A stretch of 64,000 nt of DNA from an uncultured candidate division Zixibacteria bacterium (GTDB taxonomy: Bacteria; Zixibacteria; MSB-5A5; UBA10806). Below, one piece after another: positions 32,096-42,968 of this stretch. Location of the stretch: positions 256,001 to 320,000 of the forward strand of contig CAWFQL010000012.1 of the NCBI GenBank assembly GCA_963817915.1, in the 5' to 3' direction. Position numbers and translations under genes: made by a program. Every line of letters begins with the position of its first letter. Positions within the stretch are counted from its first letter, which is position 1. The notes beneath the pieces were generated by a model. That model was not told the DNA's origin, did not search any database, and saw nothing but the letters and a program-made list of their open reading frames with translations.

Positions 32096-32535
32096 CTACC
32101 AAAATAGCAGCGGCTTTATCTTTTTTATGTAAAGTGACAGCAAATACGGCAGTTTTGCCATCATTTCAACACTATAATCTTCAGCTAAATGTGCATAGAT
32201 CATTGTCGTATCAATCTGCGCATGACCTAATAGTCTTTGTACTGTGAATAATGGTACACCAGCCATCACTAAGTGGCTCGCAAAAGTATGCCTGAAAGTG
32301 TGACATGTAGCCCAGGGAAGGCCAATCGAGGTGAGCACATTCGAGATGTGCCGGTCTAACCACCATTCAGACCATTGCGGAAGTTCTTTTCCTTTTTTAG
32401 TAAAGGGGCCGAATACCTTCCAATCAGTCCGTTTTTTCAATCTATTTAGCATTTCAATAAAACTTGGTGAATACTTAAGTGGGATTACCCTATTTCGTTT
32501 TCCTTTGGCATTAATGCCCTTAACTAACTCATGTC
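32096..32535 (-). pseudogene. Tyrosine recombinase/integrase C-terminal remnant
   Basis: AKGKRNRVIPL, HTFRHTFASHL, LLGHAQIDTTMIYAHL; in-frame stop upstream, so the N-terminal half is missing. Confidence 0.88.
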
Positions 32536-32808: not shown

Positions 32809-33396
32809 ATGAAACACAACATTGATCCATTTCCCAAGAAGGAGGCCGAACTGAGAGCCGCATTCTGGGAACAGATCAGCAGTTTCCCCGATGGTCACAA
32901 TATCAAAAACTGCCTGCAATGCGGCACCTGCACCGGAACTTGCCCCGTCTCATATGCAATGGACATTACGCCAAGACAAATTATCGCCATGTTTCGGGCG
33001 GGACTTGTCGAGGACGTGCTACAAAGCAGGACAATTTGGCTTTGCGCCTCGTGCTATTCCTGCACCGTGCGGTGCCCATCGGGAATCAGGGTGACCGATA
33101 CGCTCTACGCGCTGAAACGTACCGCCATGGATAAGAAAATCTATCCCCCGAAATTCCCCGTGCACACCCTGTCTCGAGCCTTCATTCAAAATGTCTATAG
33201 ATATGGGCGCAACTATGAACTTGGATTAGGCATTAGATATTTTCTTTCTACAAATTTCATTAAACTTTTCACCAATATAGGATATGGATTCTCAATGATA
33301 CGGCGCGGACGCCTTAATATTATTCCTAGACGACTCAAACGAATAAATCAGGTTCGGGCGATTATTAAAATAGCCGACCAATTCGGGGAGGGCTGA
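32809..33396 (+). CDS. hdrC: Heterodisulfide reductase subunit C
   Basis: CLQCGTCTGTCP; IWLCASCYSCTVRCP. Confidence 0.92.
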   Translation: MKHNIDPFPKKEAELRAAFWEQISSFPDGHNIKNCLQCGTCTGTCPVSYAMDITPRQIIAMFRAGLVEDVLQSRTIWLCASCYSCTVRCPSGIRVTDTLYALKRTAMDKKIYPPKFPVHTLSRAFIQNVYRYGRNYELGLGIRYFLSTNFIKLFTNIGYGFSMIRRGRLNIIPRRLKRINQVRAIIKIADQFGEG

Positions 33397-34277
33397 TGCT
33401 GGAATATGCTTATTACCCGGGTTGCAGCCTGGAAAATTCGGCCGGTTCATACGATAAATCGATTCGCGAGGTTTTTAATCGGTTGGGAGTCGGCTTGCAT
33501 GAGATAGAAGATTGGAATTGCTGCGGTGCAACAATGTATATGTCCGTTAAAAAAATAATCGGCTATGCCATCAGCGCCCGCAATCTCGCTATCGCCCAGA
33601 ATATGGGAATGCAGATTTGCGCCCCATGCAGCAGCTGTTACACGATTCTGCGAAAAACAAATCGCCATATCGCCTGGAATGATAAAGAACGCATCAAAAT
33701 CAATGAAGCCTTGAAAGCGGCAGGGCTATCTTATGATACCATAGTCGAGGTTCGCCATCCGCTGGATATTTTGACCAGGGATATCGGTTTGGATTTTATC
33801 AAAGAGAAAGTGGTTAAGCCTCTAAAGGGAATCAAGGTTGCGCCATATTATGGATGTCAGATAGTCAGACCGCATGGATTTTTCGATAATGTCGACAACC
33901 CGATGACAATGGATCATCTTTTTTCGGCCATTGGCGCTCAGGCGGTCGATTACCCCGCCAAGGTCCGCTGTTGCGGTGGCATGCTGATGACAACTCAGGA
34001 GGATGTCGCCTTAAAATTGAATCTCACTCTTCTTCAGGCCGCTGTCGATAACGGCGCCGATATAATCGCTACCGGCTGTCCGCTTTGCGAAATGAATCTC
34101 GAAGCCTATCAAAATAAGATTAATAAAAAATTCGGACAGAATTTTGATATCCCGATTGTCTATTTCAGCCATTTGGTAGGCATAGCATTGGGGGCAAAAC
34201 CGGAAGCGATGGGTATCGACAAACTCCTGAAACAACCCACGAAATTGAATTCTATCGCTAGGGAGGTGATGACATGA
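33396..34277 (+). CDS. hdrB: Heterodisulfide reductase subunit B
   Basis: YYPGC, WNCCGA, PCSSC; YYGCQ, RCCGG, GCPLC (two CCG domains). Confidence 0.95.
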   Translation: MLEYAYYPGCSLENSAGSYDKSIREVFNRLGVGLHEIEDWNCCGATMYMSVKKIIGYAISARNLAIAQNMGMQICAPCSSCYTILRKTNRHIAWNDKERIKINEALKAAGLSYDTIVEVRHPLDILTRDIGLDFIKEKVVKPLKGIKVAPYYGCQIVRPHGFFDNVDNPMTMDHLFSAIGAQAVDYPAKVRCCGGMLMTTQEDVALKLNLTLLQAAVDNGADIIATGCPLCEMNLEAYQNKINKKFGQNFDIPIVYFSHLVGIALGAKPEAMGIDKLLKQPTKLNSIAREVMT

Positions 34278-35251
34278 ACAATATTTCTACCAACGGTAAT
34301 GGCTATAACCCACCCCGTATAGGAGTTTATGTCTGCCATTGCGGCACCAATATCGCGAAAACAGTCGATGTCGTCAAAGTTGTAGACGCGGTCGCGGCAG
34401 TACCCGGTGTCATCATCGCCCGACATTATCGTTTTATGTGCTCTGATCCCGGCCAGGAGCTTATTCAAAAAGATATTAAAGAACTCAATCTAAATAGAAT
34501 TGTGGTCGCGGCCTGCAGCCCGTTGATGCATGAAGCGACATTCAGGAAAGCCGTCGAATCCGCGGGGCTGAATCGATATCTATTCGAAATGGCGAATATA
34601 AGAGAACAGGTAAGCTGGGTTACCGTCGATTCCAATGCCGCCACGAGAAAAGCCATCGCTTTGCTAAGGGGCTCGATAGCCAGAGTCAAATTACATGAGC
34701 CACTTGAGATGCGGCAGGTATCAATCACCAAACGAGTCATGATTGTCGGCGCGGGGATTGCTGGCATTGAAGCGGCCTTGCAGATTGCCGACGCCGGATT
34801 CGAAGTCATTCTGGTTGAAAGAGAATCTTCCATCGGCGGGCATATGTCGCAATTCGATAAGACTTTCCCGACTCTGGATTGCGCAGCCTGTATTCTAACC
34901 CCGAAAATGGTAAGTGTCGGCAAGCATCCAAATATCCGTTTGATCACATGGGCCGAGGTCGAGGAGGTCAAAGGGTACATTGGTAATTTCAAAATAAAGG
35001 TACGGAAAAAAGCCCGCTACGTCGATACCAAGCTCTGCAATAGCTGTGGTTCCTGCTATGAGGCCTGCCCGAGCCGTCCATATCCAAAATATAGAAGGAT
35101 GCTGCTTGGCGATAAGGTTTTCAAAGAGGGCAAGGCTCTTGATATACGCCATCCCGATTTATTAGGACCGGAGCATGATTTGACAGCATTGACTAGTGCC
35201 CAGCCGATGCCAGAAGCCGTGATTATTCCAGTCAATGGAGGCACAAAATGA
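34274..35251 (+). CDS. hdrA: HdrA N-terminal half (N domain, first FAD-binding part, first ferredoxin motif)
   Basis: RIGVYVCHCG, CSDPGQ, AACSP, NIRE, GAGIAG, DKTFPTLDCAACIL, CNSCGSCYEACP, then an unrelated tail. Confidence 0.92.
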   Translation: MNNISTNGNGYNPPRIGVYVCHCGTNIAKTVDVVKVVDAVAAVPGVIIARHYRFMCSDPGQELIQKDIKELNLNRIVVAACSPLMHEATFRKAVESAGLNRYLFEMANIREQVSWVTVDSNAATRKAIALLRGSIARVKLHEPLEMRQVSITKRVMIVGAGIAGIEAALQIADAGFEVILVERESSIGGHMSQFDKTFPTLDCAACILTPKMVSVGKHPNIRLITWAEVEEVKGYIGNFKIKVRKKARYVDTKLCNSCGSCYEACPSRPYPKYRRMLLGDKVFKEGKALDIRHPDLLGPEHDLTALTSAQPMPEAVIIPVNGGTK

Positions 35252-35769
35252 AAACGATGATTGATTCGAAATACGATCTCGAGCAGGCTATTGATTCTAT
35301 TGTCAAAAAATATGAGGCCCAACCGACGGCATTGATAATGATCCTTCAGGATGTCCAGAAACATTACCGTTATCTGCCAGAGGCGGCCATTCGTCTGGTA
35401 TCAGCAAAAATGAATTTGCCGTTAGCGCAGATATACGGCGTGGCGACCTTTTATAGATCATTCAGCCTGAAGCCGAAAGGCAAAAATCATGTATGTGTCT
35501 GCACCGGGACAGCTTGCCATGTTCGTCAGGCGAATGTCATTGTTGAACGGCTGGAAACGGATCTCGGGTTAAAGGCCGGAGAAACATCAAAAGATCTCGA
35601 ATTTAGTTTAGAGACGGTCAATTGTCTCGGAGCCTGCGCTCTGGGGCCATTGGTGACAGCCAATGAAGTCTATTACGGAAATATGACCGTATCGAAGGTT
35701 GACCGGATGCTGGCGAAATTACAGGGCAAAGAAGAATCTCCTGATAATGATGAGGAGGAAGCCGCATGA
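35248..35769 (+). CDS. nuoE: NuoE/HydC-like [2Fe-2S] subunit
   Basis: GVATFY, CTGTACH, CLGACALGP. Confidence 0.93.
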   Translation: MKTMIDSKYDLEQAIDSIVKKYEAQPTALIMILQDVQKHYRYLPEAAIRLVSAKMNLPLAQIYGVATFYRSFSLKPKGKNHVCVCTGTACHVRQANVIVERLETDLGLKAGETSKDLEFSLETVNCLGACALGPLVTANEVYYGNMTVSKVDRMLAKLQGKEESPDNDEEEAA

Positions 35770-37781
35770 GCGCATTGAAATTGTCATCTCCTCAGGAATT
35801 GGAAAAATTCAGGGCTCAACTGATAATGGGCCGTCAGACTAATAAGACTGTCATTACAATCTGCGCCGGCACCGGATGCCTGGCGTGCGGATGCGAATCA
35901 GTTACAAAAGCTTTCCGGGATGAATTAGCCGAAAGCAATCTATCCAAAGACGTTGATATCAAAACCACCGGATGCCATGGCTTTTGCGAACGGGGCCCGC
36001 TGGTAGTGATTCAGCCAAAGGGGATTTTTTACCAGAAGGTAAAGCCGTCCGATGTAAAATTAATAATAGACCAAACTATCAAGGGCGGACAGTTAGTCAA
36101 TCGTCTTCTTTACAAAGACCCCCAGACTAAACAGACCATAGTCGAAGAAAAAGATATCCCTTTTTACAAAAAACAGATGCGCCTGATATTCGGCAAAAAC
36201 GGTTTCATGGACCCGACCTCAATTGAGGATTATATTATTTTAGGCGGATACAAGGCGATCTCCAAAGCCCTCACCCAAATGCAGCCTGAACAGATTGTCG
36301 AAGAAGTAAAAAAGTCTGGCCTTAGGGGCCGAGGCGGCGGTGGATTTCTAACTGGAAAAAAATGGGCAACATGTCGCAAAGCCAAGGGCATTCCCAAATA
36401 TGTAATATGTAATGCCGACGAAGGCGATCCCGGAGCTTTCATGGACCGTTCGCTTCTTGAAGGCAATCCACATTCCGTAATCGAAGGCATGATTATCGGA
36501 GCGTTCGCCATCGGGAGCAATGACGGTTATGTATATGTCCGCAATGAATATCCTTTGGCGGTAAAAAATTTGACCATTGCCATCGCTGCGGCGAGGGAGT
36601 ACGGCCTTTTAGGAAAAAACATACTTGGGAGCGGATTTAATTTTGATATAGGAGTCTCTCGGGGCGGAGGCGCCTTCGTTTGCGGTGAATCGACAGCATT
36701 GATGGCGTCGTTGGAAGGCAAGACCGGCGAGCCGCGCGCTAAGTATATTCATACTGTTGAATCGGGACTTTGGGAAAAACCATCCAACCTGAACAATGTC
36801 GAAACCTGGGCTAATGTGCCATTGATAATCGAAAAGGGCGCCGAATGGTATGCCAGTATTGGCACTGAAAATTCCAAGGGCACAAAAGTTTTCGCGTTAA
36901 CAGGCAAAGTCAACAATACTGGCCTAGTCGAAGTCCCCATGGGAATAACTCTTCGCGAAATACTCTATGATATCGGTGGAGGCGTTCCCGGCAAAAAGCG
37001 GTTCAAAGCTGTACAAACCGGTGGGCCATCCGGGGGTACGCTGATAGTTGAAACCAGAGAAGAGAAAATTCACGATAGCCTGGTAGCGCATGGTGACATA
37101 CGCCAGGAAGAAGAAGTAATCAGCCTACTCGACCTACCGGTTGATTTTGATGAGCTAACCAAGGCAGGTTCGATGATGGGGTCCGGCGGCATGATAGTCA
37201 TGGACGAGGACTCATGCATGGTGGACGTGGCTAAATACTTCATCAATTTCCTGCAGGAGGAAAGCTGTGGGAAATGTTTGCCTTGTCGCGAAGGTTTGAG
37301 AACCATGCTCGATGTGCTTACCAGAATCTCCGACGGCCGCGGCGAGATGGAAGATATGGCGCTTTTAGAAGAGCTTTCGCAAGTTATTATTGATACCAGC
37401 CTTTGCCAGCTCGGCGGCAGCGCTCCCAATCCCATCCTTTCGACTCTAAGGTATTTCCGCCAGGAATATACCGCGCATGTTAAAGATAAACGTTGCCCGG
37501 CTGGTGTCTGCAAGGAACTTGTATCTCACGCCATTAGCGAAGACTGCAATGGCTGTCATGCCTGCGCCAAGCCGTGTCCTACTAACGCGATTAAAGGAGA
37601 TCTCAAGGGGCTTCATACGATTATTCAGGATAAATGCATTCAATGCGGCGCCTGCTATCAAATATGCAAATTCAACGCCATAAAGCGGGTGAAACGAGGC
37701 GAAGGGGATATAATCCAGCAGAAAGCAGGACAACAATGGCAGCCAAGAGCAAAAACTCAGCAACCATCGGTGAGCGCATAG
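35766..37781 (+). CDS. nuoF: NuoF/HydB-like FMN/NADH subunit with extra Fe-S domains
   Basis: N-terminal CAGTGC..GCHGFC; GRGGGGF; NADEGDPGAFMDR; NNVET; GGPSG; SCGKCLPCREG; C-terminal 2x[4Fe-4S]. Confidence 0.95.
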   Translation: MSALKLSSPQELEKFRAQLIMGRQTNKTVITICAGTGCLACGCESVTKAFRDELAESNLSKDVDIKTTGCHGFCERGPLVVIQPKGIFYQKVKPSDVKLIIDQTIKGGQLVNRLLYKDPQTKQTIVEEKDIPFYKKQMRLIFGKNGFMDPTSIEDYIILGGYKAISKALTQMQPEQIVEEVKKSGLRGRGGGGFLTGKKWATCRKAKGIPKYVICNADEGDPGAFMDRSLLEGNPHSVIEGMIIGAFAIGSNDGYVYVRNEYPLAVKNLTIAIAAAREYGLLGKNILGSGFNFDIGVSRGGGAFVCGESTALMASLEGKTGEPRAKYIHTVESGLWEKPSNLNNVETWANVPLIIEKGAEWYASIGTENSKGTKVFALTGKVNNTGLVEVPMGITLREILYDIGGGVPGKKRFKAVQTGGPSGGTLIVETREEKIHDSLVAHGDIRQEEEVISLLDLPVDFDELTKAGSMMGSGGMIVMDEDSCMVDVAKYFINFLQEESCGKCLPCREGLRTMLDVLTRISDGRGEMEDMALLEELSQVIIDTSLCQLGGSAPNPILSTLRYFRQEYTAHVKDKRCPAGVCKELVSHAISEDCNGCHACAKPCPTNAIKGDLKGLHTIIQDKCIQCGACYQICKFNAIKRVKRGEGDIIQQKAGQQWQPRAKTQQPSVSA

Positions 37782-37790
37782 GAGGATGAG

Positions 37791-39542
37791 ATGGCAAAAA
37801 TCAAAATAAATAATCAGCCGATCGAAGTCGAAGACGGATCATTCATCCTCGAAGCCGCACGCAGTCTGGGCATCGAAATTCCGACATTATGCTATTACCC
37901 ATTCATGACTCCCTATGCCGCCTGCCGTATTTGCGCTGTCGAAGCCGGCGATGGCAGGGGCTGGACGAAAATTGTTACCGCCTGCAATTATCCGGCCTGG
38001 GATGGTCTCGAAATTCAAACCGCGACACCGAGAGTCTTGAATGCCCGCAGAATAAATCTCGAAATGATATTAAGCCGTTGCGCCCCTGCGCCGGTTCTCC
38101 AAAAGCTCGCCGATGATTTGGGTATCAAAAAACCTCGATGGGAGGTAGGCGATGATACATGCATTCTGTGCGGTTTGTGTGTGCGGGTATGCGATGACAT
38201 AGTCGGCGCTCATGCCCTGTCATTCGGAGAACGAGGCATTTACCGCAAAGTGACCACGCCATTTAATGAGCAAAGCGGAGATTGCATTTTATGCGGAGCC
38301 TGCGCCAAGGTCTGTCCCACAGGCCATATCGCGATGGAAGAAATCCACAACCGCGAGATTGTGCATAAAGATATTTCATTGGGCCCCAATACTGCGATAT
38401 CATTACAGTTTCGACAGGCTGTTCCCAATGTCCCCAGAATCAATCCCGAACATTGCATTCATTTCAAAACCGGCGGATGCGAGGTATGCTCGAAGGTCTG
38501 CCCGAAGGATTGCATCAATTACGACGAAAAAGATTCAATTGAGGAATTCGATATTGGCGCGGTCATCATGGCAACAGGATTTGATAATTTCGATCCGACA
38601 CCGATGACCCAATACGGCTATGGCAAATATCCCAATGTCATTACCGCTGAAGAGTTCGAAATGATGAACAATGCCGCCGGACCGACCGGCGGGAAAATCG
38701 TAATGGAAAACGGCCAGGAGCCGCGGGCGATAGGAATACTTCATTGCATTGGCAGCCGCGATCAGAATTACCATAAATACTGCAGCCGGGTTTGCTGTAT
38801 GTACGCCTTCAAATTTTCTCATCTGGTTAAGGAAAAAACTAAAGCGGAAGTATATCAATTCTATATTGATATCCGTAGTTTCGGCAAGGGGTACGAGGAA
38901 TTCTATCAGAGGATACTCAATGAGGATGTCAATGTTATTCGCGGCAAAGGAGCGGAAGTAATTCCATCCGGATTCAGGCGCGGCGAAGAGGGACCGCTCT
39001 TGATTCAATGCGAAGATACGCTTGTCGGCAAATTCCGCGAGATCCCGGTTGATATGGTAATTCTCTGCACGGCTCTTGAGGCCAGATCTGACGCTAAAGA
39101 AGTCGGCCGCAAATTCAATATCTCGACCGGTGCGGACGGCTGGTATATCGAGGCCCATCCCAAGCTTGGCCCTGTTTCGACAACAACTGACGGAGTATTT
39201 CTCGCCGGAGCCTGTCAGAGCGCTAAAGATATCCCCGATTCAGTAGCACAGGGTGGAGCGGCTTCATCACATGCCATGAAATTACTCTGCCAGGGCGAGA
39301 TCATGATGGATGCCGCCTACGCGGTGATCAAAGAGGAAAATTGCAGCGGGTGTAAAATCTGCAATGACCTTTGTCCTTATACCGCGATCGAATTTATAAT
39401 AAACAAGAAAGTAAGTTCGGTTAACTCAGCATTATGCAAGGCATGCGGTACTTGTGTTGCCGCCTGTCCATCGGGCGCGATTGTTGCCAGACATTTCACC
39501 GACGATCAAATATATGCCCAGATTGAAGGGATGCTATTATGA
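37791..39542 (+). CDS. Fusion of a NuoG/HydA-like N-terminal Fe-S module with the HdrA C-terminal half
   Basis: PTLC..ACRIC..TAC, CILCGLCVRVC, CILCGACAKVCP; then QAVP, ATGF, HCIGSRD, YCSRVCCMY, DIRSFGKGYEEFY, EAHPKL, KDIPDSV, 2x[4Fe-4S]. Confidence 0.92.
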   Translation: MAKIKINNQPIEVEDGSFILEAARSLGIEIPTLCYYPFMTPYAACRICAVEAGDGRGWTKIVTACNYPAWDGLEIQTATPRVLNARRINLEMILSRCAPAPVLQKLADDLGIKKPRWEVGDDTCILCGLCVRVCDDIVGAHALSFGERGIYRKVTTPFNEQSGDCILCGACAKVCPTGHIAMEEIHNREIVHKDISLGPNTAISLQFRQAVPNVPRINPEHCIHFKTGGCEVCSKVCPKDCINYDEKDSIEEFDIGAVIMATGFDNFDPTPMTQYGYGKYPNVITAEEFEMMNNAAGPTGGKIVMENGQEPRAIGILHCIGSRDQNYHKYCSRVCCMYAFKFSHLVKEKTKAEVYQFYIDIRSFGKGYEEFYQRILNEDVNVIRGKGAEVIPSGFRRGEEGPLLIQCEDTLVGKFREIPVDMVILCTALEARSDAKEVGRKFNISTGADGWYIEAHPKLGPVSTTTDGVFLAGACQSAKDIPDSVAQGGAASSHAMKLLCQGEIMMDAAYAVIKEENCSGCKICNDLCPYTAIEFIINKKVSSVNSALCKACGTCVAACPSGAIVARHFTDDQIYAQIEGMLL

Positions 39543-40003
39543 GCTTCGAACCAAAAATAATAGGCTTTTTGTGCAATTGGTGCAGCTATACGGGGGCCGA
39601 TCTGGCCGGGACGGCGCGAATGAAATATCCCGCCAATATGTTGAGCATTCGGGTAATGTGCAGCGGTCGTATTGATCCGGGATTTATCTTCGATGCCTTC
39701 AGCAATGGCGCCGATGGTGTTATCGTCTGCGGATGTCATCCCGGCGATTGCCATTATGTCGAGGGCAATTATAAGGTCATGCGCAGAATTCCTCTCACAA
39801 AGAAGATTCTCGAAAATATGGGGATTCCACCGGAGAGGCTTCAACTGGAATGGGTATCGGCTTCAGAAGGCGGCAGGTTTCAGGAAGTGGTGACTAAATT
39901 TACAGAGAAGATCAGGGCTATGGGGCCGTTGGACCTTAAAGAGCTGAAATTTGTCCCGGAGGCGATAATGGAGCAACATCTTGAAGGCAGGGACGCGACA
40001 TGA
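39539..40003 (+). CDS. mvhD: MvhD [2Fe-2S] adaptor
   Basis: CNWCSYTGADLAG, RVMCSGR, GCHPGDCHY, WVSASEG. Confidence 0.95.
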   Translation: MSFEPKIIGFLCNWCSYTGADLAGTARMKYPANMLSIRVMCSGRIDPGFIFDAFSNGADGVIVCGCHPGDCHYVEGNYKVMRRIPLTKKILENMGIPPERLQLEWVSASEGGRFQEVVTKFTEKIRAMGPLDLKELKFVPEAIMEQHLEGRDAT

Positions 40004-40974
40004 CACCAAAACCTAAATTAGCGATCTATTGGGCGTCATCGTGCGGTGGATGTGATGTCGCTATTCTTGATATCGAAGAAAAAATTCTCGATGTGGCCAA
40101 TTTTTTCGATATAGTATTCTGGCCCTGCGCGACCGATTTCAAATATGATGATGTCAGAAAAATGGCTGATAAATCAATCACTCTTACACTTTTCAATGGC
40201 GCCATTCGGAGCGATGAAAATTTCGATATCGCCAGGCTGCTCAGGCAAAAATCACTTTTGCTTTGCGCATTTGGGAGTTGCGCGTCTGATGGCAGTATCC
40301 CTGCACTTGCAAATCTGGTCGACAAGGAATCGATTTTCGAATATGTTTACGGCAAATCCCCATCCTTAGATAATCACAATGGAACTATTCCTCAAACCAA
40401 GTGCTCGGTTCCCGAAGGAACTCTTACAATCCCGAATTTGTGGAATACTGTTCGCACCCTGGGGCAGACAGTCGATATCGATTATATTATTCCCGGCTGT
40501 CCGCCGCAATCAGATCAAATTGCCGGGGTAGTCGCGGCGGTAATTGATATTATCAGCAATGGCAAACAGCTGCCGCCCAAAGGAGTTGTCCTTGGCGCTG
40601 GCGATAAAAGCTGCTGCGATGAATGTCCTCGCGATCGCAATATCAAAAAGATCAAAAAATTTATAAGGCCATTTGAAATAATACTCGACCCTAAATTATG
40701 CCTTTTAGAGCAAGGGATTGTTTGTCTCGGACCGGCGACCCGATCCGGATGCAAAGCCAAATGCGTCTCGGCCGGTGTTCCCTGTAGAGGATGCTATGGT
40801 GCACCAGTCAATGTGCGGGATCAGGGGGCAAAGATGGTATCGGCCCTGGCGAGCGTAATAGATTCATCAGATCCCGCAGAAATCGATTCAATTATCGATA
40901 CGATTGCCGACCCCGTCGGGACATTTTATAGATTCAGCCTGGCGGATTCCATGTTAAGGAGGGTACAGCGATGA
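40000..40974 (+). CDS. mvhG: Group 3c [NiFe]-hydrogenase small subunit
   Basis: SCGGC, FGSCA, PGCPP, CDECP, CLLEQG..CLGPATRSGC..PCRGCYG. Confidence 0.93.
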   Translation: MTPKPKLAIYWASSCGGCDVAILDIEEKILDVANFFDIVFWPCATDFKYDDVRKMADKSITLTLFNGAIRSDENFDIARLLRQKSLLLCAFGSCASDGSIPALANLVDKESIFEYVYGKSPSLDNHNGTIPQTKCSVPEGTLTIPNLWNTVRTLGQTVDIDYIIPGCPPQSDQIAGVVAAVIDIISNGKQLPPKGVVLGAGDKSCCDECPRDRNIKKIKKFIRPFEIILDPKLCLLEQGIVCLGPATRSGCKAKCVSAGVPCRGCYGAPVNVRDQGAKMVSALASVIDSSDPAEIDSIIDTIADPVGTFYRFSLADSMLRRVQR

Positions 40975-42452
40975 AGCAAATTTTGATTGACCCAATTACC
41001 CGATTGGAAGGACATGGCAAAATCCATCTTTTCGTAAACGACGACGGCAGTCTGGCGAATTGCTATTTTCAGGTGCCGGAGCTTCGCGGATTCGAGAAAT
41101 TTTGCGTGGGGCGACCAGTCGAGGAAATGTGCCGCATAACAACTCGCATCTGCGGAGTTTGCCCCGAAGCCCATCACATGGCGGCCGCCAAAGCCGCCGA
41201 CGCTGTCTACGGTGCTACAATTCCGTCAGCGGCAAGAAAGCTGCGGGAATTGGCATATAACGCATTCTTTGCGGGCGACCATACCACTCATTTCTACGCC
41301 CTGGGCGGGCCCGATTTTGTCTGCGGCCCGGATGCCCCTGCTCCAGAACGAAATATTCTCGGGGTCATTGCCAAAGTCGGTATCGATGCTGGCAGGAAAG
41401 TTATCGCACAACGTGCCGGAGGCCAGCGAGTAATCGAGATTATCGGCGGCAAAAAGATACATCCGGTTACCGCCTTGCCGGGCGGCATGTCCAAGCGAGT
41501 TACAAAGGAAGAACAGCAGGAAATAATCAAGATCGCCGAGGGAATGGTTGAATTCGGAAAATTTACAATAAAAGTGCTGAATGATATCGTGCTGGCCAAT
41601 AAGGCGTATGTCGATTTAATTCTTTCCGATACATTTACGCACAAAACCTATAACATGGGCCTGGTCGACAATAACAATAAGGTTAATTTTTACGACGGCC
41701 TTGTACGGGTTACAGCGCCCGACGGCACAGAACACGCCATATATGCGCCAAAAGATTATCTTGATTATGTTGCCGAGCACGTGGAGCCTTATAGTTATCT
41801 CAAATTCCCATTCTTGAAAAAAGTTGGCTGGAAAGGATTTGTCGACGGCAAGGATTCGGGCGTTTATAAGGCCACCCCTCTTTCGAGATTAAATGTCTCC
41901 GATGGTATGACAACGCCGCTCGCGCAAGCAGAATATGAACGGTTTTATGAAACACTGACCGGAGACCGATCGGGAAAGACACCGGTGCATTCAACATTGG
42001 CGACACATTGGGCCAGAGTAGTCGAGTTGATGTATGCCTGCGAGGCGACATTAGCACAAGCCAAAGACGACGAGATTATATCGGATCATATATTCGATCC
42101 CCCAACCGGAATCGTCGGAGAAGGTGTCGGAATCGTGGAAGCGCCGCGAGGTACGTTGACTCATCATTATAAGACGGACAAGAATGGTATTATCACGGAG
42201 GCTAATCTTATAGTCGGCACCACAAATAACAACGCCCCAATTTCAATGTCGATCAAGCGCGCGGCCGAAGGCTTGATAAAAAAGGGCGAAGCCATTACCG
42301 ACGGGACATTGAATAAGATCGAGATGGCTTTTCGTGCATATGATCCATGTTTCGGATGCGCGACTCATTCATTGCCGGGTCAGATGCCAATGGAAGTAAT
42401 TGTTCACGATAGCCAAACCGGTGAAATCATCCAAAGCGTCCGGAGAAATTGA
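40971..42452 (+). CDS. mvhA: Group 3c [NiFe]-hydrogenase large subunit
   Basis: [36 protein letters not shown] plus cleavable extension. Confidence 0.95.
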
Positions 42453-42476
42453 CGCCTAATTAGCGGGCAGTACAAA

Positions 42477-42968
42477 ATGGCGAAACCGTACTTGATTCTT
42501 TGTCTCGGTAATGAAATATTATCAGACGACTCCTTTGGATTTAAAGTTTCCAATGTTTTAAATAATGGAGACGATCTCGGAGAGAAGATCGATGCAGTTT
42601 TTGCGCCGCTGGCCGGGTTCAATCTTCTTGATCTTCTTAAAGACCGTTCGTCCGTTCTGATCGTAGATACCATAATTACTTCTAACGCGAAGCCGGGGAC
42701 TATCCACTATTATCCCATGGGGCATTTCACGCCATCGAAACATCTGACCTGCTCGCATCAGGTCAACCTTCCCACCGCGCTTGAATTCGGCAGGCTTCTA
42801 GGAATGACCATACCTCAAAATATCGATGTCCTGGCAATCGAAGCCCAGGATGTCGAAACATTATCGGAAAAAATGACCGAAAATGTCTCCGCCTCATTGG
42901 AACCGGCAATCGAGACCATAAAGAATTGGATAACGCTTAGAAATAATGGAGACAATGCTGACGAATAG
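42477..42968 (+). CDS. hycI: Hydrogenase maturation protease
   Basis: LGNEILSDDSFG, IVDT, SHQV. Confidence 0.88.
   Translation: MAKPYLILCLGNEILSDDSFGFKVSNVLNNGDDLGEKIDAVFAPLAGFNLLDLLKDRSSVLIVDTIITSNAKPGTIHYYPMGHFTPSKHLTCSHQVNLPTALEFGRLLGMTIPQNIDVLAIEAQDVETLSEKMTENVSASLEPAIETIKNWITLRNNGDNADE

Follow-up and report, generated by a model that had tools for sequence, protein, structure and literature searches.

Electron bifurcation is the means by which strict anaerobes obtain low-potential ferredoxin from weak reductants. In the MvhAGD-HdrABC complex of methanogens (PDB 5ODC, 8RVU/8RVV, 9SW2-6) the low-potential exit of HdrA meets free ferredoxin or polyferredoxin. Relatives of this complex and of the Bfu family (BfuABC/HydABC, including the Type 2 Wor-Bfu 9MQX and NiFe-Bfu 7T2R) come together in an operon that lies in a stretch of 64,000 nucleotides (nt), here called the window, of the genome of an uncultured candidate division Zixibacteria bacterium (GenBank assembly GCA_963817915.1, contig CAWFQL010000012.1, positions 256,001 to 320,000). 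Alignment and conservation establish that HdrA is encoded there as two polypeptides, the second of which carries a BfuA-type iron-sulfur module fused to its N-terminal end, and that the genes of BfuC and BfuB lie between the two halves. Homologs of HdrA, HdrB, HdrC, MvhD, MvhG and MvhA are all present, the cluster ligands of HdrA and the Lys and Glu of its flavin adenine dinucleotide (FAD) site are all kept, and the hdrCBA-mvhDGA order is that of canonical bacterial relatives. Unlike that of the methanogen complex, the low-potential exit would meet a tethered module for nicotinamide adenine dinucleotide (NAD(H)) and ferredoxin, since the second HdrA half is fused to the BfuA-type module. For the Bfu family, BfuB and BfuC of the window are full-length homologs with all cofactor sites, but BfuA is fused to half of another bifurcating flavoprotein.

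The only described union of HdrA-type and HydBC/Bfu-type modules, which also includes an MvhD-like adaptor, is class II benzoyl-coenzyme A reductase (BCRII; BamBCDEFGHI or Bam-Bfu; bioRxiv 10.64898/2026.04.10.717634; PMC9304861), and according to the preprint, dated April 2026, no earlier complex was on record as combining two bifurcation modules. Electrons of its Bfu module enter at the C-terminal ferredoxin domain of the HdrA-like subunit and at the MvhD-like adaptor BamF, the high-potential electron leaves the bifurcating FAD toward an HdrBC-like subunit, and the inserted ferredoxin domain, the low-potential exit from this FAD in methanogen Hdr as well, leads to BamBC (bioRxiv 10.64898/2026.04.10.717634). 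In the window, by contrast, the Bfu genes are spliced into the inserted ferredoxin domain, that is the output arm, with a hydrogenase on the input side, and HdrA is split whereas BamE is one chain, a fused HdrA dimer. A comparison with BamE-I, drawn in an initial annotation of the window made from the sequence alone, is thus apt as regards the joint presence of HdrA and HydBC-like modules but does not extend to the wiring. For type III HdrA, described for archaea (PMC12054007), an NAD(P)H module lies between the same two Cys motifs, often with mvhDGA, but it is a single-chain GltD-type insert without a split, whereas the module found here is a three-gene Bfu module with both split and fusion. 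BCRII is the closest precedent for two bifurcation modules in one complex, and type III HdrA the closest for an NAD(P)H module at this site. In anaerobic bacteria the NADH dehydrogenase/heterodisulfide reductase FlxABCD-HdrABC (Ramos et al. 2015) likewise has an NADH-linked module encoded with HdrABC. Flx is not known to be of the NuoEF/Bfu type, nor is hdrA known to be split in that system. No Hdr- or Mvh-linked class of Bfu enzymes was found in the consulted sections of Schut 2022 (PMC9304861), the supplementary clade tables lying outside this scope, and full-text literature searches, which did not extend to those tables or to the Appel 2021 review of HdrA modules, returned no description of a nested split-and-fusion HdrA, an architecture that the initial annotation had not recognised as a known one either. 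The parts (HdrABC, Mvh and Bfu) are known; the combination and the split/fusion geometry are new.

The operon consists of ten co-directional genes at positions 32809-42968, and the order proposed initially, hdrC-hdrB-hdrA(N)-bfuC(nuoE)-bfuB(nuoF)-[bfuA(N)::hdrA(C)]-mvhD-mvhG-mvhA-hycI, was reproduced exactly by the open reading frames and their Pfam domains. Its gene junctions had been described as mostly overlapping or abutting, and seven of the nine do overlap, by 1-4 nt each (an ATGA overlap at hdrA(N)/nuoE), the other two being gaps of 9 and 24 nt, which suggests a single translationally coupled operon.

Within HdrA(N), residues 12-272 align to residues 10-270 of the solved HdrA 8RVU (E-value 1.5e-105), and the homology stops right after C255-x2-C258-x2-C261-x3-C265-P (nt 35036-35068), close to the position of about 35071 previously given for its end after the first Cys motif. 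In the fusion protein, residues 164-582 align to residues 245-650 of 5ODC HdrA (1.3e-106), and the HdrA part resumes at LGPNTAIS (residue 197, nt 38379), in frame behind a [2Fe-2S]+2[4Fe-4S] module and at the very position (about 38379) first proposed. The two halves, whose alignment to HdrA had been recommended as a check, therefore have complementary, non-overlapping homology to the solved 8RVU and 5ODC chains. In the inserted ferredoxin domain, which is the low-potential arm of HdrA, the break separates the first Cys motif from the second; the latter, C222-x7-C230-x2-C233-x3-C237-P (nt 38454-38501), is found on the fusion and has a 5-residue insert relative to 5ODC. Instead of a single polypeptide, HdrA is thus specified by two genes 2.5 kb apart, with proteins of ~320 and ~585 amino acids (aa) across the family, and the 2x[4Fe-4S] domain would be complete in trans, motif 1 on HdrA(N) and motif 2 on the fusion both being invariant. 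The match of fusion residues 164-178 to HdrA motif 1 is a motif-on-motif alignment, because this motif already belongs to the BfuA-type ferredoxin pair, and the true partner of motif 2 is therefore the motif on HdrA(N).

The remaining hallmarks of HdrA are distributed over both halves. The conservation given here was read from alignments of 120 sequences for each of the two families, in which the closest relatives were sampled and conservation is consequently inflated, and residue invariance was also read in 53 sequences. Apart from the four cysteines of motif 1 (255, 258, 261 and 265), the invariant cysteines of HdrA(N) are 56, 81, 203, 206, 21 and 23, among which C21, C23, C56 and C81 represent the N-terminal four-Cys [4Fe-4S] domain (99-100% in 120 sequences, with C21 and C23 at 99%). 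FAD/Rossmann Pfam matches fall on HdrA(N) 154-251, and the thioredoxin reductase (TrxR)-like FAD domain, including its Lys and Glu, is shared between the two chains: E290 (nt 38658-38660) and K341 (nt 38811-38813) of the fusion, noticed initially as EFEM and CCMYAFK motifs, align by hand count to E356 and K409 of 5ODC HdrA and are invariant in 53 fusion sequences. These two residues have been named as flavin-site residues for flavin-based electron bifurcation in HdrA (PMC12054007). The C-terminal 2x[4Fe-4S] domain is present at fusion residues 512-564 (Pfam Fer4_10/Fer4_21) with eight invariant cysteines. Beyond residue 272 HdrA(N) continues into a tail of ~60 aa that has no counterpart in solved HdrA; P269, P271, R274, G286 and E314 are invariant and 12 further positions near-invariant in 53 sequences, which indicates that the tail is under constraint.

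For the N-terminal part of the fusion, the top match is 9MQX_A, a 247-aa NuoG-like/BfuA-like chain to which fusion residues 11-185 align (1.8e-33), and a bifurcating hydrogenase contributes a further match, its HydA1 chain (8A6T_A), over fusion residues 3-211 (1.3e-32). A [2Fe-2S] set (C34, C45, C48, C65) and a complete 2x[4Fe-4S] ferredoxin pair (C124..C134 and C165..C175-P) were identified, the cluster cysteines being invariant in the family. A His-x3-C-x2-C-x5-C motif for a His-ligated cluster was not found in this N-terminal module; the stretch that presumably corresponds to its position in BfuA-type subunits holds a single Cys, C97. The cluster content, [2Fe-2S]+2x[4Fe-4S] without the His-ligated cluster, is that of a Type 2 BfuA, which is devoid of the A3 and A5 clusters (Schut 2022, PMC9304861), and the clusters probably correspond to A1, A2 and A4 of that study. 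In Bfu enzymes the BfuA chain provides the mid-potential feed into the FMN (flavin mononucleotide)/B1 site of BfuB (Schut 2022).

The genes interposed between the HdrA halves encode, by their matches, HydC/HydB-type Bfu subunits, not plain complex-I NuoEF, which bears out the initial view of a HydABC-like NADH module. For BfuB, the top PDB matches are B subunits of Bfu/HydABC-type enzymes (9MQX_B, 3.3e-235; 7T2R_B, 8.4e-235; further 8A6T_B, 7Q4V_B, 9N5U_B, 9BOV_B and 7P5H_B), matches to NuoF of complex I being far weaker (~1e-100). The alignments with 9MQX_B and 7T2R_B run end to end and cover the N-terminal [2Fe-2S] domain, the FMN/NAD(H) site, a [4Fe-4S] cluster, the B2-site ligands and the C-terminal 2x[4Fe-4S] domain, and the Pfam matches 2Fe-2S_thioredx (24-103), NADH_4Fe-4S (487-571) and Fer4 (593-640) account for clusters B1, B3/B4 and B5. 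The B2 ligands of 7T2R_B correspond, in a gap-free alignment with an offset of 46, to residues of BfuB as follows: C438 to C484, H525 to H571, C531 to C577 and C536 to C582. The B2 His (H571), part of the definition of the Bfu family, is therefore present; it is kept in all but 8 of 1558 BfuB and absent from non-bifurcating HydB, and non-bifurcating homologs lack clusters B2-B5 (Schut 2022). C476 of 7T2R_B is replaced by S522, at a position occupied by Thr in about two-thirds of BfuB (Schut 2022). The C-terminal 2x[4Fe-4S] domain of BfuB is the proposed ferredoxin route (Schut 2022). BfuC finds HydC chains as its top PDB matches (8A6T_C, 6.4e-44; 7P5H_C; 7T2R_C) and covers the full Pfam 2Fe-2S_thioredx profile (1-145 of 145), so that the [2Fe-2S] cluster C1 is accounted for at the profile level. 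An insert of ~26 residues at BfuB 427-452 (window 37044-37121) is present relative to both templates, 9MQX_B and 7T2R_B.

It had been supposed that the two HdrA halves reassemble, and the predicted complex of fusion and HdrA(N) supports a normal HdrA fold in which the FAD sheet and the inserted ferredoxin domain would be completed across two chains. The ipSAE (interaction prediction score from aligned errors) was 0.82 as the median of three runs, with 0.00 for the best of three controls; of 157 solved complexes 116 attain the mark applied, as do 2 of 215 mismatched pairs, a calibration that is approximate for models made with our own alignments. Agreement between runs extends to at least 91% of the contacts, and the predicted local distance difference test (pLDDT) score of the partner is at least 82. 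In the best-defined contacts fusion residues 253-261 meet HdrA(N) 155-158 and 239-243 and complete the FAD Rossmann sheet. For the ferredoxin domain, HdrA(N) 254-279 and 282-291 touch fusion residues 165-174, 179-186 and 199-244, so that motif 1 is modelled against motif 2, beside the BfuA-type ferredoxin pair. As HdrA has been solved as one chain, this pass shows likeness to the HdrA fold and is no independent proof. Residues 292-325 of the HdrA(N) tail have no partner within the two-chain model and may dock on BfuB/C.

The same split point and fusion, proposed initially as something to be sought in other genomes, recur in several phyla. The fusion family comprises at least 120 clusters (64-83% identity, 579-604 aa, 99-100% coverage), with candidate division KSB1, Thermoanaerobaculaceae, Ca. 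Eisenbacteria and Zixibacteria among the sources named, and the HdrA(N) family at least 120 clusters of 317-334 aa; the 4-Cys motifs, the [2Fe-2S] set and the C-terminal ferredoxin cysteines are all 100% conserved in the 120 sequences per family. The full nested order was identified in four genome loci (L001, L002, L003 and L006, from Ignavibacteriaceae, Ignavibacteriales, Zixibacteria and an unclassified bacterium), and the same order is seen on partial contigs from Calditrichaeota (L004) and Ca. Tariuqbacter (L005). In the phylum of the source genome, a full-length fusion, defined as a match from query residue 4 or earlier to 581 or later in one open frame, is present in at least 45 of 285 sampled genomes, the source genome included and lower-scoring matches remaining outside the count; six further genomes have fused matches that are incomplete at the N- or C-terminus. 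Many others of this phylum have a canonical unsplit HdrA, with frames of ~660-710 aa, or frames of 1146-1177 aa. Chance is excluded as an explanation by the E-values together with the same layout in many independent assemblies. The halves are inconsistently labelled in databases ('heterodisulfide reductase subunit A', 'FAD-dependent oxidoreductase', '4Fe-4S dicluster domain-containing protein' or 'hypothetical protein'), and the operon may therefore be taken, in metabolic reconstructions, for a conventional Mvh-Hdr with an unconnected NuoEF. Two full-length fusion genes are present in a genome from the same family as the source (G259), at C99:15020-16765 (82% identity to the fusion of the window) and C9:12429-14192 (49%). 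In the metagenome-assembled genome of L001 (L001:8001-10454) the fusion match ends at residue 564 and mvhG begins at residue 66 with mvhD missing between them, which looks like a deletion or an assembly collapse.

From this anatomy it is moderately probable that the products form one soluble complex, with the low-potential exit of HdrA permanently connected to a Bfu core. Two bifurcation sites would then couple H2, a disulfide, NAD(H) and ferredoxin, in a direction and stoichiometry inferred on the same basis. The MvhAGD part would give or take the electrons of H2 at the usual input side of HdrA, and in the most likely mode these electrons would be bifurcated at the HdrA FAD, the high-potential electron passing to HdrBC for disulfide reduction and the low-potential electron to the Bfu core. 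The covalently attached BfuA-type module ([2Fe-2S]+2x[4Fe-4S]) would extend the cluster chain from the inserted ferredoxin domain into the BfuB/BfuC core, which is predicted to bind FMN, NAD(H) and ferredoxin, bears the hallmarks of the bifurcating family and would be the second site of bifurcation, where NAD+ and ferredoxin share the electrons. Operation in both directions is to be expected. By a rough estimate from textbook potentials, payment by two exergonic branches (disulfide and NAD+) would make the overall reaction more favourable, and ferredoxin reduction might run at lower H2 than in a plain Mvh-Hdr. More tentative is a broader proposal, namely that two mechanistically different sites (the HdrA FAD and the Bfu FMN/iron-sulfur site) act in series in one soluble hydrogenase complex, and that the inserted ferredoxin domain serves as a kind of socket into which NAD(P)H modules were plugged more than once, namely part of a Bfu operon where the gene was split, GltD where it was inserted, and variants with NuoF::GltD.

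Several observations weigh against this mechanism. One nested locus (L037:2212-8752) has hdrC-hdrB-hdrA(N)-nuoE-nuoF-fusion without mvhDGA downstream, so that the Bfu module must be the electron input in operons of this type, and two loci (L007 and L058) have split and fusion without adjacent nuoEF, so that the modules are separable; the family as a whole can therefore not share one stoichiometry with four substrates. Transfer from H2 to NAD+ needs no coupling, and the benefit of a second bifurcation is thus an argument only. Reverse operation, or an input of NADH/ferredoxin into Hdr, is equally compatible with the anatomy. The complex model covers two of nine subunits (fusion and HdrA(N)), and its pass may be explained by likeness to the solved single-chain HdrA. 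One DNA run mapped to the operon gave short contigs only (e.g. 34951-35101 and 39967-40117, with 0 differences) and none that bridges a junction, a result that carries no weight either way. As to the disulfide, the only DsrC-family protein of the source genome (105 aa, L104:227-544 on the minus strand, identical to G000:C9) has a single C-terminal Cys and therefore appears to be TusE-like instead of a two-Cys redox-active DsrC; DsrC was accordingly dropped as a candidate substrate.

The alternative that survives best assumes the same complex with the opposite logic, the Bfu module being an input through which NADH, or NADH confurcated with reduced ferredoxin, would pass via the inserted ferredoxin domain to the disulfide, and Mvh an H2-evolving or alternative branch. 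The enzyme would then be an NADH-dependent heterodisulfide reductase/hydrogenase, like FlxABCD-HdrABC or the enzyme proposed for type III HdrA. For the L037 operon, NAD(H) and ferredoxin are the only non-thiol partners; NADH has been proposed as the mid-potential donor for GltD-inserted HdrA encoded with mvhADG (PMC12054007), and the HydBC-like module is a confurcating input in BCRII (bioRxiv 10.64898/2026.04.10.717634). In addition, neither an [FeFe] hydrogenase nor Rnf/Nqr was found in the source genome (3.33 Mb, 93.9% complete) with the families and queries used, and an outlet from NADH/ferredoxin to H2 could be useful there. However, the inserted ferredoxin domain is the output, and MvhD with the C-terminal domain the input, in solved Hdr complexes and in BCRII, MvhD, MvhG and MvhA are kept here and in most nested loci, and by our own estimate H2 evolution driven by thiol plus NADH is unfavourable except at very low H2; this alternative accordingly seems unlikely, if less so than those that follow. 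It is improbable that the Bfu-like module is non-bifurcating and merely replaces free ferredoxin as the acceptor, as proposed for GltD-inserted HdrA, so that the complex would be an H2:NAD+ plus disulfide oxidoreductase bifurcating at one site or not at all: relatives in which this position is taken by a simple GltD-type NAD(P)H module (L008, L102, L103) and the two loci that manage without adjacent BfuBC (L007, L058) are in line with it, but BfuB keeps the N-terminal [2Fe-2S], the C-terminal 2x[4Fe-4S] and the B2 His, all of them distinguishing features according to Schut 2022 (PMC9304861). An artefact or decay, that is an assembly chimera or a disrupted hdrA beside an unrelated Bfu enzyme, is effectively refuted by conservation, since despite the unbridged junctions and an integrase fragment just upstream of the operon, many assemblies, made independently and from several phyla, share the split point, the fusion and the gene order, the reading frames of both halves are intact, with overlapping stop/start codons and invariant ligands, and the model reunites the halves.

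If a four-substrate, two-stage redox transformer of the preferred, hard-wired kind does exist, it could make H2 a usable reductant of ferredoxin for bacteria at pressures where a plain Mvh-Hdr no longer works, which bears on the use of trace H2 by uncultured bacteria of sediments and soils, among them Ignavibacteria, Zixibacteria, Calditrichaeota and KSB1. The operon would be the second two-module case after BCRII, differently wired, much more widespread and hydrogenase-based, and would offer a natural test of the chaining of HdrA-type and Bfu-type sites and of the role of the inserted ferredoxin arm.

For an overview of layouts, the best 80 of 573 relatives from a metagenome scan were combined with the genome loci, giving 85 rows of the HdrA core; since these were chosen by similarity to the fusion, the counts are not prevalences. 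The nested layout was assigned to 31 rows (window included) and the canonical one to 35, followed by fused with context cut off (6), canonical-like with context cut off (4), large insert (3), adjacent halves without nuoEF (2; L007 and L058), partly fused (2) and insert-like with context cut off (2). In L008:6486-9068 (860 aa) and L103:2076-5474 (1132 aa) an unsplit HdrA contains a GltD-type module (Fer4_20 plus NAD(P) Rossmann/Pyr_redox_2) between the same two Cys motifs, which is the type III arrangement known from archaea (PMC12054007). For the 85 rows, a quick maximum-likelihood tree, built from tblastn segments with midpoint rooting and a careful search left unfinished, places the window in a clade of ten with 100% support, made up of seven nested rows, L007 and two rows with truncated context; the lack of nuoEF in L007 therefore looks secondary. 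The nested forms do not make up one clade in this tree, where the starred branches require at least eight changes, and nested L037/L039 are sister to the insert forms L102/L103 (98%). These placements point, with low confidence, to repeated module exchange at one HdrA site. A single origin of the split is unsupported by this quick tree, which yields no firm count of origins. It was also considered that L007 borrows BfuBC from the other Bfu set of its genome, an idea that seems unlikely, as that set has its own 225-aa BfuA and a glutamate-synthase-like partner and looks like a separate enzyme.

Other variants were noticed among these loci. In L055:402-4290, kinase-like ATPases, a HydS-like [FeFe]-hydrogenase homolog (Fe_hyd_lg_C plus FeS) and a PHP-domain protein are encoded between hdrA(N) and nuoE, and L038, L057, L059 and L060 have a gap of similar size. 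Such genes presumably form the accessory or sensory set that commonly goes with HydABC operons, a hint that part of an operon of this type was captured and that these genes came along with the Bfu genes. In L050:3779-6949, NuoF is fused C-terminally to a GltD-type domain (Fer4_20 plus Pyr_redox_2; 1056 aa in all), by which the nested module would gain an NADP(H)-type site, and NuoF frames of 1022-1092 aa occur in L049, L035 and L061. The L037 locus has hypB, a sensor kinase and a distant [NiFe] hydrogenase (24-26% identity) placed convergently, and L058:1374-8339 has the order etfB, etfA, a 669-aa HdrD-like CCG protein, a 392-aa HdrA(N), fusion and mvhDGA, without nuoEF. A canonical unsplit hdrCBA-mvhDGA-hycI is directly followed by nuoE and nuoF in L071:9489-12198, and in L087:7827-8831 nuoE follows hycI before the contig ends; this is another way to pair Hdr and Bfu modules.

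Features of the operon and of its split HdrA, in window coordinates
Feature	Position	Strand	Basis or remark
hdrC, 2x[4Fe-4S] ferredoxin-like subunit	32809..33396	+	Pfam Fer4_8/Fer4_17; upstream of hdrB in related loci too
hdrB, two CCG domains, disulfide-reducing subunit	33396..34277	+	Pfam CCG x2; top PDB matches all HdrB
hdrA(N), 325 aa	34274..35251	+	N-terminal 4-Cys domain, first FAD/TrxR part, motif 1, tail
Motif 1 (C255..C265-P) on HdrA(N), first Cys motif of the inserted ferredoxin domain	35036..35068	+	Alignment, conservation
HdrA(N) C-terminal tail, residues 268-325	35075..35248	+	Beyond the alignment with solved HdrA
bfuC (nuoE/hydC-like), thioredoxin-like [2Fe-2S] subunit	35248..35769	+	Pfam 2Fe-2S_thioredx, PDB matches
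bfuB (nuoF/hydB-like), 671 aa	35766..37781	+	Pfam; top PDB matches Bfu-type B subunits
Fusion protein bfuA(N)::hdrA(C), 583 aa	37791..39542	+	HdrA and BfuA/HydA1 alignments
BfuA-type module of the fusion, residues ~1-195	37791..38375	+	Pfam Fer2_4, Fer4_7, Fer4_Nqo3
HdrA(C) part of the fusion, residues 197-583	38379..39542	+	Aligns to 5ODC HdrA up to residue 650
mvhD, [2Fe-2S] adaptor	39539..40003	+	Pfam FlpD 1.1e-55
mvhG, [NiFe]-hydrogenase small subunit	40000..40974	+	Pfam Oxidored_q6
mvhA, [NiFe]-hydrogenase large subunit	40971..42452	+	Pfam NiFeSe_Hases
hycI-type hydrogenase maturation protease	42477..42968	+	Pfam HycI

For the other operon members, HdrB aligns to 8RVV_B over residues 2-275 (2.8e-54), and the top PDB match of MvhA is MvhA 5ODC_F (1.5e-115), above the other hydrogenases among the matches listed. 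Homologs of MvhA, MvhG and MvhD are encoded together with Hdr, in keeping with an Mvh-type (group 3c) hydrogenase, an assignment based on Pfam and the 5ODC_F match and not on subgroup motifs. Elsewhere in the genome, three 2-oxoacid:ferredoxin oxidoreductase-type genes, one further [NiFe] hydrogenase and one other CCG protein (a 669-aa frame, G000:C16:226766-227401) were identified, and no second HdrA was found in the 93.9% complete assembly, so that the HdrA of the window is the only one found there. The flanks of the operon are unrelated to it and encode an fn3 protein, a hypothetical protein, an integrase fragment on the opposite strand and an M1 peptidase. The fragment, a 118-aa open reading frame at 32096-32452 on the minus strand immediately upstream of hdrC, has the C-terminal part only of a phage-integrase domain and may be a relic of mobile DNA adjoining the operon.

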